Origin: Corallococcus exiguus
Lineage (GTDB): Bacteria; Myxococcota; Myxococcia; Myxococcales; Myxococcaceae
DNA: 64,000 nucleotides
Assembly (NCBI RefSeq): GCF_051058965.1
Contig: NZ_CP183924.1
Reading direction: 5' to 3' (one strand)
Of the stretch, positions 21,452 to 24,858 are shown one piece after another. Within the stretch, counting starts at the first letter, position 1, and the number at the start of each line of letters is the position of its first letter. A program made the position numbers and the translations under genes. Under the pieces are notes generated by a model that was given only the letters and a program-made list of their open reading frames with translations, did no database searches and was not told the DNA's origin.

Positions 21452-21469
21452 GCGGGCTAGGGGGTGTCC

Positions 21470-21855
21470 CTAATTGAGCCACATCCGAGTGCAGGCGAGG
21501 TGGATGAGGGCAAGGTAGTTGCGGGCTGTCTTCTCATATCGAGTCGCGAGGCGGCGGAAGCGCTTGAGGCCATGGAAGAACCTCTCGACCAGATAACGAA
21601 GGGCGTAGAGCTTGCGGTTCTTCGAAAGGGCTCTGGGGCGCTCCGGCTTGGAGGCGATGACGGCCTTCATGCCGAAGAACTTGAGCAGGGCTCGGAACCA
21701 GTCCGCATCGTACCCGCTGTCGGCGATGCAGGCCGCGCCCACCGCGTGCATTATCAGGTCGTCGGCCTTGGTCATCTCGTGCCGCTGGCCGGGCGTCAGT
21801 TCGATATGGCGTGGCCGTCCTCGGCTGTCGACGAGGGCATGGACCTTGGTCGAAA
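21470..21855 (-). CDS. IS5-family transposase OrfB (DDE domain), reached by a -1 frameshift from OrfA.
   Basis: The -1 frame reads ...STKVHALVDSRGRPRHIELTPGQRHEMTKADD...SGYDADWF...LVERFFHGLKRFRRLATRYEK. A slippery T5 on the minus strand (plus-strand A5 at 21853-21857, GGTTTTTCG) lies in the orfA/orfB overlap. The fused product is about 253 aa. Confidence 0.8.
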
Positions 21856-22230
21856 AACCTCCTCGAGAGCGTCCCAGAGCGTTGTGTTGGACCCCCCTTT
21901 TCCTCCCGCGGCGTCCAGATGCGCCCGGATGGTGGTGCCATCAAGGATGGACGCTTCGTCCCCCGGCACGGGAGGATTCGACTCGAGCTGCACTTCCTTG
22001 AAGAGCCGCTCCCACACGCCGCGCTTCGACCAGTTGTTGAAGCGGTTGTACACGGACTTCCACTTGCCATATCGACCGGGCAGATCTCGCCAGGGGCTGC
22101 CGGTGCGGGCGAGCCAGTACACGGCGCTGACAAACAGACGCTCGCCTTTGAGCGAGTGCCGGCCCCGCTGCGGAGGCAGAAGCGGGCGGATGCGCTTCCA
22201 TTCCTGGTCGGTGAGTTCATGTCGGTGCAT
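21796..22230 (-). CDS. IS5-family transposase OrfA (N-terminal, DUF4096-like).
   Basis: LTDQEWKRIRPLLPPQRGR...RLFVSAVYWLARTGSPWRDLPGRYGKWKSVYNRFNNWSKRGVWERLF. Confidence 0.9.
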   Translation of the reverse strand: MHRHELTDQEWKRIRPLLPPQRGRHSLKGERLFVSAVYWLARTGSPWRDLPGRYGKWKSVYNRFNNWSKRGVWERLFKEVQLESNPPVPGDEASILDGTTIRAHLDAAGGKGGSNTTLWDALEEVFRPRSMPSSTAEDGHAISN

Positions 22231-22344
22231 CCCCTGGGGTAGGCAATGGCCCCGCTTCAGTGCAACCCCACCTGCTGATGCTCGGCCGAGGGCACGACTG
22301 CTACCCTCGGCCGCAGTTCATCTTCTCTCGTTTAGGGACACCCC

Positions 22345-24858
22345 CTAGTGGACCTCGGGAGGCGGCGCTCCCAGCTTCTCCAGCAGCTTCTCCACCGGAT
22401 CGCTGTCCTGGCTGACGTCCGCCATGGCGGCCCGGTACTCGATGGAGGTCACGTTCTCCACGTCCGGCATCAGGCGGTTGATGACCGTGCGCGCCGCGTC
22501 CGCGTTGCACTCGGGCAGCACCACCGCGAAGACGCCCAGCCCCAGATGGGCGATGGAGTCCGGGTGGCGCACGCGCTTGCGCATCACCTCCGCCATGTTG
22601 GGCGGCATGGCGTCCAGATCTCGGTCCGGACGCAGCACCGCCAGCGTGAGGGCGCGGTGGTAGCGGCGGCTGCGGGCCACCTCCTGCTCCAGGCGCAGGA
22701 GCAGGCCGCGGCGGTCGAGCAGGCCCGTCACCGGATCGCTGCCGGTGCGCCGCTGCAGCGAGTTCGTCTTGTCCTGCTGATCCTTCTCACCCCGGCTCAG
22801 CTTGAGCGCGCGCTCGGTGCGGTTGAGCAGCTCCACCGCGTTGAAGGGCTTGGCCATGTAGTCCACCGCGCCCAGGTTGAGCGCGCGGACCTTGTCGGCC
22901 ACGCCCTGGTGGGCGGACAGGAGGATGACCGGGATGTGCGCCGTGTCCGACGAGGACTTGAGCGCCATGGCCGCGTCCAGGCCGTCCAGCTTGGGCAGGA
23001 ACACGTCCATCACCACCAGGTCCGGCCGTGAAGCGCGCGCCTTCGCCAGGCCCTCCGCGCCGTCGCGAGCGACCTCCACGCGGTACTTCGAGCGCAGCAC
23101 CTCCGACAGCACCGCCGCGATTTCCGGCTCGTCCTCCACCACCAGCACACGAGGCTGCTCGGGCGCGGCGCCGGGCGCGGGCTGCGGCCGGGGGTTGCGC
23201 GCGGCCTCCTGCGCCAGGGGCAGCGTGAAGACGAAGGTGCAGCCGCCGTCGGCCGGGCTCTCCGCCCAGATTTCACCGCCGTGCAGCTCCACGAACTCCT
23301 TGCAGATGGCCAGCCCCAGCCCCGTGCCCTTGGGCCCGTGGCGGTAGCGGTCGAAGACGAGGTGCAGTTCGTCCGGGGGAATGCCCACCCCATTGTCGCT
23401 CACCATCACCCGCACCGCGTCGCCGTCCGGCCGCGACAGCCGCTGCGTGCGCACCACCACCACGCCCGGGTCGCTGGCGTGCTGGATGGCGTTGCTGATG
23501 AGGTTCTGCAGCACCTCGTGCAGCTTCACCTCGTCGCCAATCAGCATCAGGCTGTCGGGGCACTCGGAGCGCAGCGACACGGCCTTCTCCGCCGCGAGAA
23601 TCTCCAGCTCCGCCACGGCGTCGCGGCACAGCTGCGCCACGTCCAGCACACGGGGCTCGATGGAAAGCCGCGCCGCCTCGCCCTTGCCCTTCTCCAGCAA
23701 GGACTCGACCAGGGTGAGGATCTTCCGGCCCTGGCGGATCATCGCCTCCGCGGACTGCTTCTGCTGCGTCTCCAGCGGCCCTTCCAGCAGCAGCCGGCCG
23801 TGCCCCAGGAGCACCTGGAGCGGCGCGCGCAGGTCGTGGCTGCACACCGCGATGATCTCATCCTTGAGGCGGTTGAGTTCCTTCAGGCGGCGGTTCGCGT
23901 CGTTGAGCTCGCGGTAGCGCTCCACGTACGCCAGCTCCAGGTCCTCGCGCTTCTTCTTCACCGCCGTATGCAGGCGCGCGTTGCGGATGGAGTTGGCGAG
24001 CACGCCCGCCACCGCCTCCGCGAACTCCTGCTCGTCGCGCCCGATGGACGCCTCGCCCTTGGACACGCGCAGGAAGAGCGCGCCCAACAGGTCGTCCTGG
24101 CAGATGAGCGGCTGCACCAGGATGGACTTCACGCCCTGCGGTAGCAGCGACGTGCGCACCTCAGCCATCAGCGGGTCGCGCTGCGCCTCTTCAATCAGGA
24201 CGGGCTGCCGCGTCTCCAGCGCGCGGCGCAGCTCCGGGTAGCGCGCCACCTCGATGTCCAGCTGGACGAGGCTGGGGTCCTCCTGCGTCGCGACGACCGT
24301 GGCCGTGCGCGCGTGGCTGCCCTCCACCAGCACCACGGAGCAGCGGTCCGTGCCCGTCACCTGGCCGACCTTCTCCACCGCGATGCGGAGGATCTCCTCC
24401 AGCTCCAGCGAGCTGGTGGCCGCCTGGGTGATTTCGAGCAGCATCCCCATGCGCATCCGGATGCGCTCCTCGCGCTCCTTGAGCCTCCAGGCGCGCAGGG
24501 CGGACTCCAGCCGGGGCACCAGTTCGTCGGCGCCGCGCACGAAGTCGTCCACCGCCAGCCGCTTGAAGGCCTCCGCTGAGCGCGCGCGGCCCTGATCCAC
24601 CAGCACCGGCAGGCGCTGGAGCTTGTCCGTCTTGCGCACCGTCTCCAGCAGTTCCGCCGCCCGCTTGGCCGTCACCGCCAGGAGCACCACCTCCGGCTGG
24701 AGCTGATCCACCATCTCCGCCAGCCCGGTCTCCCGTTCCGTGGAGGCGCATTGGTAGCCACTCGCCGTGAGCCGCTCCACCAACGCGTCACCCGCGGCCT
24801 TGGCCGCGAGCACCAGCACCCGCCCCCGCTGCTCAGACGACAACATCTCGATCCTCAC
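22345..24858 (-). CDS. Large hybrid sensor histidine kinase: pseudo-receiver, GAF, HisKA, HATPase_c, REC, and a degenerate C-terminal GGDEF-like domain.
   Basis: H-box CSHDLRAPL, G-box DNGVGIPPDEL...GTGLGLAICK, REC motifs VLVVEDEP...DLVVMDVFLP...K. The C-terminal GGDEF-like fold has LGLGVF in place of GGDEF. The TAG stop lies inside the IS target-site duplication. Start is GTG 24858 or ATG 24846. Confidence 0.85.
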   Translation of the reverse strand: MRIEMLSSEQRGRVLVLAAKAAGDALVERLTASGYQCASTERETGLAEMVDQLQPEVVLLAVTAKRAAELLETVRKTDKLQRLPVLVDQGRARSAEAFKRLAVDDFVRGADELVPRLESALRAWRLKEREERIRMRMGMLLEITQAATSSLELEEILRIAVEKVGQVTGTDRCSVVLVEGSHARTATVVATQEDPSLVQLDIEVARYPELRRALETRQPVLIEEAQRDPLMAEVRTSLLPQGVKSILVQPLICQDDLLGALFLRVSKGEASIGRDEQEFAEAVAGVLANSIRNARLHTAVKKKREDLELAYVERYRELNDANRRLKELNRLKDEIIAVCSHDLRAPLQVLLGHGRLLLEGPLETQQKQSAEAMIRQGRKILTLVESLLEKGKGEAARLSIEPRVLDVAQLCRDAVAELEILAAEKAVSLRSECPDSLMLIGDEVKLHEVLQNLISNAIQHASDPGVVVVRTQRLSRPDGDAVRVMVSDNGVGIPPDELHLVFDRYRHGPKGTGLGLAICKEFVELHGGEIWAESPADGGCTFVFTLPLAQEAARNPRPQPAPGAAPEQPRVLVVEDEPEIAAVLSEVLRSKYRVEVARDGAEGLAKARASRPDLVVMDVFLPKLDGLDAAMALKSSSDTAHIPVILLSAHQGVADKVRALNLGAVDYMAKPFNAVELLNRTERALKLSRGEKDQQDKTNSLQRRTGSDPVTGLLDRRGLLLRLEQEVARSRRYHRALTLAVLRPDRDLDAMPPNMAEVMRKRVRHPDSIAHLGLGVFAVVLPECNADAARTVINRLMPDVENVTSIEYRAAMADVSQDSDPVEKLLEKLGAPPPEVH

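Follow-up and report, generated by a model that had tools for sequence, protein, structure and literature searches.

We analyzed a 64-kb stretch of myxobacterial DNA, referred to in its full length as the window, in which an insertion sequence (IS) of 884 bp occupies positions 21461–22344, between the TAG stop codon of a hybrid histidine kinase gene and the GTG start codon of a gene coding for a tetratricopeptide repeat (TPR) protein. All the genes discussed in this study, including those of the IS, are on the minus strand, and their coordinates are listed in Table 1 together with those of the other features of the locus. The kinase, TPR, hydrolase, bacN, bacO, bacP, and padC genes follow each other in the same order as MXAN_4640 down to MXAN_4634 of Myxococcus xanthus, in which MXAN_4634 is padC (PMC5703909). 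The initial annotation of the window had placed pyrE after padC; the only phosphoribosyltransferase match scored 22 bits, which is below the cut-off, and this label is unconfirmed.

The kinase matches the Pfam domains GAF, HisKA, HATPase_c, and Response_reg, with a marginal match to GGDEF. It possesses an SHDLR phospho-acceptor box and RHPD at residues 764–767, which corresponds to an RxxD I-site, and has GLGVF in place of GGDEF. Its identity to the M. xanthus locus is 83%. Given that the domain set, the I-site motif, and the gene order with bacNOP fit MXAN_4640, we assigned the kinase as an ortholog of SgmT. In M. xanthus, MXAN_4640 is sgmT, which codes for a cyclic di-GMP-binding hybrid kinase working with DigR (PMC3509222). 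The insertion leaves the kinase open reading frame (ORF) unchanged, and the TAG stop codon is regenerated by the target-site duplication.

Table 1. Coordinates of the IS, its parts, and the flanking genes in the window
Feature	Position	Strand	Remarks
Hybrid histidine kinase, assigned as SgmT (MXAN_4640) ortholog	22345–24858	−	837-codon ORF ending ...GTC CAC TAG; GAF, HisKA, HATPase, REC, degenerate GGDEF
Upstream CTAG copy (target-site duplication)	22345–22348	−	Its TAG, 22347 to 22345, is the kinase stop; single CTAG in the empty site of relatives
Left inverted repeat, transposase-proximal, GGGGTGTCCCTAA	22332–22344	−	Extends to 14 bp with a TA duplication; same repeat in 9 other copies
GC-rich hairpin in the 114-nt leader 5' of OrfA	22283–22313	−	10-bp perfect inverted repeat, predicted 12-bp stem
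OrfA, 144 aa, DUF4096 N-terminal transposase part	21796–22230	−	Same 144-aa length in 5 other Corallococcus sequences
AAAAGGGGGG run (A4G6), putative −1 frameshift or slippage site joining OrfA to OrfB	21892–21901	−	Run unchanged in 10/10 full-length copies, window included
OrfB part, −1 frame, most of the DDE domain	21470–21893	−	TAG stop 21470–21472 within the right inverted repeat
Right inverted repeat	21461–21473	−	Located with repeat finder
Downstream CTAG copy	21457–21460	−	Followed by CCCGC, then GTG of the TPR gene
TPR-repeat protein (MXAN_4639 position), signal-peptide-like N-terminus	19565–21451	−	628-codon ORF, GTG start; first gene 3' of the IS
Alpha/beta hydrolase (Hydrolase_4)	18716–19552	−	Starts 12 nt after the TPR stop
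bacN	18321–18662	−
bacO	17934–18257	−
bacP	17217–17930	−
padC	15830–17155	−

Ends of the element

The IS is bounded by 13-bp perfect inverted repeats (GGGGTGTCCCTAA), which were recognized both by reading the sequence and with a repeat finder and are exact reverse complements of each other. No further match to GGGGTGTCCCTAA was found in the 64-kb window when two mismatches were allowed. A CTAG tetranucleotide abuts each repeat on the outside. The perfect 13-bp repeats and the perfect CTAG on both sides had been described in the initial annotation, whose sequence-level statements all proved correct on re-reading and in the repeat search; no imperfection was seen in the repeats or the duplication. 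The GC content of the element is 63.7%, compared with 70.8% for the window.

The target duplication is readable in three ways: as 4-bp CTAG with 13-bp repeats, as 2-bp TA with 14-bp repeats (an 886-bp element), or as 3 bp (CTA or TAG). These readings fit equally well because CTAG is palindromic and the element ends are G...C. A Rhizobium relative of the element is flanked as C-TA-[IS]-TA-A. Given that this relative shows TA and that the duplications of the IS427 group, to which we assign the element below, are mostly 2 bp, TA within CTAG would be at least as likely as CTAG to be the duplicated unit.

Between the left repeat and OrfA lies a GC-rich hairpin with the arms CGGCCGAGGG and CCCTCGGCCG (the z-score of the whole-leader fold is −1.9). 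The predicted structure could be a barrier to read-through from the kinase gene or could limit the translation of OrfA.

Transposase and family assignment

OrfA and a −1 frame are co-oriented with the flanking genes, and the −1 frame is open from 5' of the AAAAGGGGGG run down to the TAG in the right repeat. When OrfA and OrfB are fused at the A4G6 run, a 253-aa protein results, which matches the NCBIfam model NF033580 (IS5 family) over positions 2–258 of 258 with 275.9 bits (cut-off, 110) and also matches Pfam DUF4096 (PF13340) and DDE_Tnp_1 (PF01609). The placement in the IS5 family made in the initial annotation was thus borne out. The fusion junction reads ...HLDAAGGKGGVQHNALGRSRGGFSTKVH..., while in the closest single-ORF homolog (P0001, 60% identity) the corresponding stretch is an uninterrupted ...HQDAAGGKGGVRRNHLGRSRGGVSTKIH...; the fusion at AAAAGGGGGG re-creates the ...AAGGKGGV... 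of the single-ORF homologs.

A tblastn search against plasmids aligned the fusion over its full length to many alphaproteobacterial elements with 44–46% identity, and each of the plasmid matches listed was in two pieces, which fits a split over two frames. Among the best plasmid matches was an "IS5-like element IS427 family transposase" annotated by PGAP, which is 44% identical over the full length. At 767 nt, the coding sequence annotated for IS427 is not divisible by three. The frame changes at the same codon position in IS427 (GCAAAAAGGGGGATC, A5G5), the Rhizobium relative (GCAAAAAAGGGGCTG, A6G4), and the window element (GGAAAAGGGGGGTCC).

Comparison of the window copy with the most divergent copy found, that of Corallococcus sp. 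CA054B, showed 16 synonymous and 8 non-synonymous codon changes. Taken separately, the OrfA and OrfB parts had ratios of 9:4 and 7:4, and therefore both frames appear to be under purifying selection. Given this selection, the two-frame organization is best regarded as a functional state and not as decay, with the transposase being a DDE enzyme that is predicted to be producible only via a −1 shift at the AAAAGGGGGG run. The initial annotation had called OrfA and OrfB intact; both frames are indeed open, and we add that the transposase would be made as their −1 fusion at A4G6. We considered the A4G6 run as an inactivating 1-nt deletion relative to the single-ORF homologs and rejected this explanation, since the run is common to all copies, identical copies have spread within one genome, and IS427 shifts at the homologous position.

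An antisense ORF of 294 codons (21464–22348, plus strand) runs from repeat to repeat and ends in the flanking CTAG; it was open in five of the five other copies checked (L080, L081, L103, L108, and L110). As a candidate gene it was rejected, as it has no Pfam match and its 15:15 ratio of synonymous to non-synonymous changes is as expected for a frame overlapping the sense ORFs; a GC-rich shadow ORF is the probable interpretation.

The element shows the traits of the IS5 family, namely the full-length profile match, terminal inverted repeats, and a short target-site duplication as opposed to the single CTAG of the empty sites. It also shows those of the IS427 group: its size is within about 800–1000 bp, and it has two overlapping ORFs with the full DDE motif only in the −1 fusion. 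Elements of this group are 832–865 bp long with 13–21-bp repeats and a mostly 2-bp (once 4-bp) duplication, and they have two overlapping ORFs with a conserved frameshift motif and the full DDE motif only in the fusion (Dziewit et al. 2012, PMC3281130). We therefore assigned the window element to the IS427 group of the IS5 family as an ordinary and, judging from the copies described below, active member.

The type element of the group, IS427 from Agrobacterium tumefaciens, resembles the window element in its small size, its full-length transposase homology (44%), and its −1 shift, which falls on an A/G run at the corresponding codon. However, the identity is only 44%, the run is A5G5 in place of A4G6, and the host of the window element is a myxobacterium with 70% GC. 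Its ends differ from those of the window element, and the 150 bp fetched on either side of IS427 contained no repeats with at least 12 of 14 positions matching. The IS427-group elements of Paracoccus (IS1248, ISPpa2, and others; PMC3281130) share with the window element the size class, the repeats, and the two ORFs with a frameshift motif; they are multi-copy in their hosts and are read through by upstream promoters. Their hosts and sequences differ from those of the window element. An integration host factor (IHF)-like site has been reported in their left repeat. E. coli IS5, which belongs to another subgroup (the IS5 group) of the same family, targets C(A/T)A(G/A), i.e., CTAG or CTAA, and the target is duplicated on insertion. 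In contrast to the window element, it is 1.2 kb long and has a single transposase ORF with ins5CB genes on the opposite strand and no frameshift.

Empty sites, other copies, and the CTAG target

The best matches of the kinase protein are 95–98% identical in Corallococcus species and 82–85% identical in Myxococcus. The host is thus Corallococcus, whereas the initial annotation had named Myxococcus as the related genus. When the IS was removed from the window, the 8.1-kb stretch from the kinase gene to padC was 99.59% identical to that of strain AB018 (6.5 kb compared), 99.53% identical to that of C. exiguus GCA_013248925.1 (4.0 kb compared), and 99.12% identical to that of strain AB030 (8.1 kb compared). 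Based on this identity of 99.1–99.6%, we assigned the source of the window to the C. exiguus group.

We compared the kinase/TPR junction with those of 91 distinct orthologous loci, of which 79 were species-level loci collected via the kinase and 12 were taken from 20 strain-level loci collected via the hydrolase and BacN. The eight strain-level loci left out repeat stretches already counted (the contig ranges of seven coincide with those of species-level loci, and the eighth, L095, shares sequence with L082). Exact-sequence searches with OrfA, the kinase, and the TPR protein gave no match; those with the hydrolase and BacN yielded the conspecific loci. The IS was absent from the junction in all 91 other loci, and a BLAST search with the IS against 112 fetched loci matched only copies elsewhere. 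An exact empty site, the 14-mer CACTAGCCCGCGTG, is uninterrupted in 23 related assemblies, namely in seven species-level loci and 16 strain-level assemblies. The seven species-level loci, in which the site reads GAGGTCCACTAGCCCGCGTGCGCCC with a single CTAG, are those of C. interemptor, C. exercitus (two strains), C. carmarthensis, C. aberystwythensis, C. coralloides, and, as a near variant, Corallococcus sp. RDP092CA. In AB030, AB018, and GCA_013248925.1, this site is empty and the IS is found at other places. Given that strains 99.1–99.6% identical to the source in this region have the empty site, the insertion should post-date their separation; we consider it strain-specific and younger than the split from strains that differ by 0.4–0.9% in this region. 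The initial annotation had proposed a recent insertion and named as the contrary case an IS present at the same position in all lineages; these empty sites, with none of the 91 loci carrying the IS there, uphold the proposal.

Further copies were found in Corallococcus assemblies via protein clusters. Four full copies without any difference between them are present in AB030 (GCA_003668965.1); L103, L104, and L106 lie at different sites, and the fourth (L107) is on a contig of its own. They are also identical to the copy in C. exiguus GCA_013248925.1 (L081). The copies in AB018, one Logan run, and one ENA assembly differ from these by 2–4 bases, and the CA054B copy (L080) differs from the other copies by 27–32 bases. 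L107 and L110 are 892-bp collapsed repeat contigs, which consist wholly of CTAG, the 884-bp IS, and CTAG, indicating that all the copies in these two assemblies are flanked by CTAG on both sides. The presence of identical copies at other CTAG sites in sister strains indicates that the element is active.

Several copies have peculiarities of their own. The CA054B copy is the most divergent, with 96.4% identity and the flanks CTAA and CTAG, and lies within a gene cluster (RAVY01000146.1, 215–5942) that codes for ThsB-TIR, SIR2/STALD, and TIR-domain proteins and is apparently a Thoeris-like defense island. A 5'-truncated copy in AB030 (L105; RAWQ01000177.1, 1471–2241) is without the first 113 nt (the left repeat and the leader), begins at the OrfA ATG region, and is otherwise identical to the full copies of that strain; it lies near a phage-integrase gene. 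The copies in AB018 (L108) and Logan SRR28060074 (L109) have a common left flank and different right flanks, which could reflect an IS-associated rearrangement or deletion, or strain variation. In one scan, a single low-GC contig (L102) was retrieved from metagenomes with an 18-mer taken from the IS end; we rejected it as a chance match and not a copy.

All eight full-length copies for which flanking DNA is available have CTAG on the right; on the left, seven have CTAG and one has CTAA. This pattern indicates that the element targets CTAG and duplicates 2–4 bp. IS1301 of Neisseria meningitidis is an IS5-family element reported to insert at AYTAG with TA duplication. In our set, three of the eight flanked sites are ACTAG and one is ACTAA, while the other four have no A before CTAG.

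CTAG is scarce in the window: with the IS removed, it occurs nine times in 63.1 kb, compared with 168 times expected from the base composition and 35 times expected from the trinucleotide frequencies. The nine sites are at 18321, 21457, 29865, 30245, 36941, 47401, 48637, 52933, and 56434 in IS-removed coordinates, to which 888 is added beyond 21460 to obtain window coordinates. They lie almost only at gene ends: five serve as TAG stops of probable genes, among them bacN and the kinase gene, and two more are intergenic. Likewise, six of the eight independent insertion sites are on the TAG stop codon of a neighboring gene according to the gene calls returned with the loci (the window, L081, L104, L106, L108, and L103); at L103, a single ancestral CTAG is the stop for two convergent genes. 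Six of eight corresponds to the expectation from a random choice among CTAG sites. The landing on a stop codon and the intact kinase ORF are thus explained by the target specificity combined with the scarcity of CTAG; in a genome with 70% GC, these two factors suffice for insertion at stop codons without gene damage. The initial annotation had stressed that the insertion is exactly at the kinase stop. The TAG is indeed in the CTAG target and is regenerated, but its position appears to be a by-product of CTAG targeting rather than a mark of a special site.

Taken together, we consider it very probable that the element is an active IS427-group member that has recently inserted at this site. Three points weigh against this view. 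The A4G6 run departs from the canonical slippery heptamer (X XXY YYZ), and the frameshift is deduced from the sequence. Target duplications of 2, 3, and 4 bp are all compatible with the sequence. In addition, four substitutions, all to A, are private to the window copy (element positions 176, 653, 726, and 762 in minus-strand numbering), and two of them change residues: one is R21Q and the other changes D to N in ...LSK(D/N)RKLY..., just before the YREK-type motif, where most homologs have D. Given these changes, and the D-to-N change among them, the window copy may be less active than its relatives.

The kinase–TPR junction and the downstream genes

In the window, the TPR GTG codon is 5 nt (CCCGC) after the downstream CTAG copy, and in all the empty sites of the exiguus/coralloides clade the ancestral gap between the kinase stop and the TPR start is 5 nt. 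The distance from the kinase stop to the TPR GTG or ATG is 31–63 nt in Myxococcus, Pyxidicoccus, Hyalangium, and the other Corallococcus clade, and about 20 nt in the single Archangium locus examined; the GTG start itself has been kept across genera. The spacer between the two genes has a conserved CTGCA-N17-TA(G/C)A(C/A)T motif that ends about 9–13 nt before the TPR start; the loci are L006–L009, L012, and L092 in the other Corallococcus clade, where the spacer also has a GC hairpin, L013–L047 in Myxococcus and Pyxidicoccus, and L025, L026, and L038. The motif looks like a separate promoter of the TPR gene that would give a near-leaderless transcript with a very short leader. The exiguus/coralloides clade is without about 57 nt of the spacer, which leaves the 5-nt junction, and we interpret this junction as a derived deletion of the clade. 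Since the spacer lost in this clade has the promoter-like motif, it is plausible that the TPR gene depends on sgmT transcription there. The initial annotation had inferred that the kinase and TPR genes were once an operon. The 5-nt ancestral gap on the same strand is real; the gap is the whole of the evidence for an operon, however, and other genera and the other Corallococcus clade have a promoter-like motif between the two genes.

Directly 3' of the hydrolase stop and about 40 nt 5' of bacN, TGACATAATCA (window 18663–18715, minus strand) contains a conserved CATAAT element resembling a −10 element. Among 20 loci, TGACATAATCA is kept across Corallococcus, Myxococcus, Pyxidicoccus, Citreicoccus, and Hyalangium and is not found in Archangium or Cystobacter. 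CATAAT is likely to be the −10 element of a bacNOP promoter. Lin et al. (2017) treated bacNOP as a separate putative operon. The proposal in the initial annotation that the whole string from the hydrolase through bacNOP and padC to pyrE depends on upstream transcription is weakened by both the conserved element and this operon assignment. In one related locus (L101; GCA_012985245.1, 6733–12209), bacP is followed by ABC-transporter, DUF2085, and extracytoplasmic function (ECF)-sigma genes instead of padC, which represents either a rearrangement or an assembly join.

The insertion puts 888 bp between the kinase stop and the former TPR junction. The IS end is now 9 nt from the TPR GTG codon. The distance to this codon is 18 nt from the stop of OrfB and 344 nt from that of OrfA (21452–21795). 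A scan with the sigma-70 consensus found no promoter-like site in 21200–22700, and a terminator scan of the IS found none at the IS end and one weak internal hairpin in OrfA, which was counted twice as overlapping parses. CTGCAC-N16-TAGGGA at the IS end is a weak match whose −10 is without the invariant final T, and we gave it little weight.

We propose the following course of events. The IS transposed in one C. exiguus-like strain into the CTAG of the TAG stop of the sgmT ortholog, and the stop was regenerated. In this clade, the TPR gene would have lost its own promoter beforehand and relied on sgmT transcription, probably with translational coupling. After the insertion, most ribosomes would terminate at the end of OrfA, 344 nt short of the TPR start codon, and the coupling between the kinase and TPR genes would be lost. 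Given that no outward promoter was found, TPR and hydrolase transcripts would have to come from read-through of the sgmT and transposase promoters. The net effect would be partial polarity on the TPR and hydrolase genes, from which bacNOP and padC are probably protected by a promoter-like element of their own. The transposase of the window copy is probably transcribed from the sgmT promoter as well; a precedent is the E. coli IS5 copy whose transposase is expressed from the co-oriented host promoter PnmpC and which thereby becomes the main donor. Polarity, loss of coupling, and read-through are all deductions from gene arrangement, which counts against this scheme, and we give these regulatory consequences an even chance of being correct. 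They are probably narrower than those proposed in the initial annotation.

A possible but more doubtful explanation is that the insertion is functionally silent, with transcription passing unimpeded, the TPR GTG initiating translation alone, and the downstream genes unchanged. The terminator scan accords with it in that no convincing terminator was found in or at the end of the IS, IS1248 is read through, and the same GTG in other genera seems to function despite a very short leader that is devoid of a Shine-Dalgarno sequence; moreover, the strain is viable enough to have been isolated and sequenced. On the other hand, the 344 nt of untranslated RNA after the OrfA stop are a classic setting for Rho-dependent polarity, loss of the 5-nt junction removes termination–reinitiation coupling, and the IS leader has the 12-bp GC hairpin.

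We regard it as quite improbable that an outward or hybrid promoter of the IS now drives the TPR, hydrolase, and bacNOP–padC genes more strongly than before. The IS is co-oriented with the downstream genes, the weak CTGCAC-N16-TAGGGA at its end resembles the Myxococcus CTGCA-N17-TAGACT 5' of the TPR gene, and other IS groups do have outward promoters. However, the consensus scan of 21200–22700 was empty, the candidate −10 is without the invariant final T, and a hybrid promoter is impossible with the GTG only 9 nt from the IS end. In the IS427 group, IS1248 was tested for outward promoter activity with a negative result, and transcription from an upstream promoter crosses that element. The outward promoter that the initial annotation had offered as a driver of the downstream genes is therefore not favored.

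An ancient, defunct relic in the form of a long-fixed frameshifted pseudogene, or an assembly artifact, is scarcely credible: the transposase split over two frames, the many distant single-ORF homologs, and the four private substitutions of the window copy would accord with a relic, but the site is empty in every relative at up to 99.6% identity, no copy has lost the frameshift run, which is homologous to the run of IS427, one genome has identical copies at four sites, purifying selection acts on both ORFs, and a perfect duplication of exactly the empty-site CTAG is unlike a mis-join.

The recent insertion of an active IS427-group element is an event of an ordinary, well-understood kind that would not surprise a specialist in insertion sequences. 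A bolder and, in our estimate, unlikely extension is that in GC-rich myxobacteria such an element is stop-codon-homing, its duplication always restoring the stop; here, the TPR and hydrolase genes, and possibly bacNOP–padC, would be expressed only through the IS, and the sgmT promoter would make this copy an unusually active donor. If this were true, the window insertion would lie at the one kind of site where the "safe" behavior still matters, a 5-nt stop–start junction with a lost downstream promoter.

The practical value of our results concerns mostly annotation: the two reading frames should be listed as one frameshifted transposase, and the SgmT ortholog is intact. The insertion also serves as a strain marker within the C. 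exiguus group. For the biology of these bacteria, the strain provides a natural experiment on whether, in a clade without the intergenic promoter, sgmT transcription is needed for the gene after sgmT and for those leading up to the bactofilin/PadC cluster, which serves chromosome segregation.

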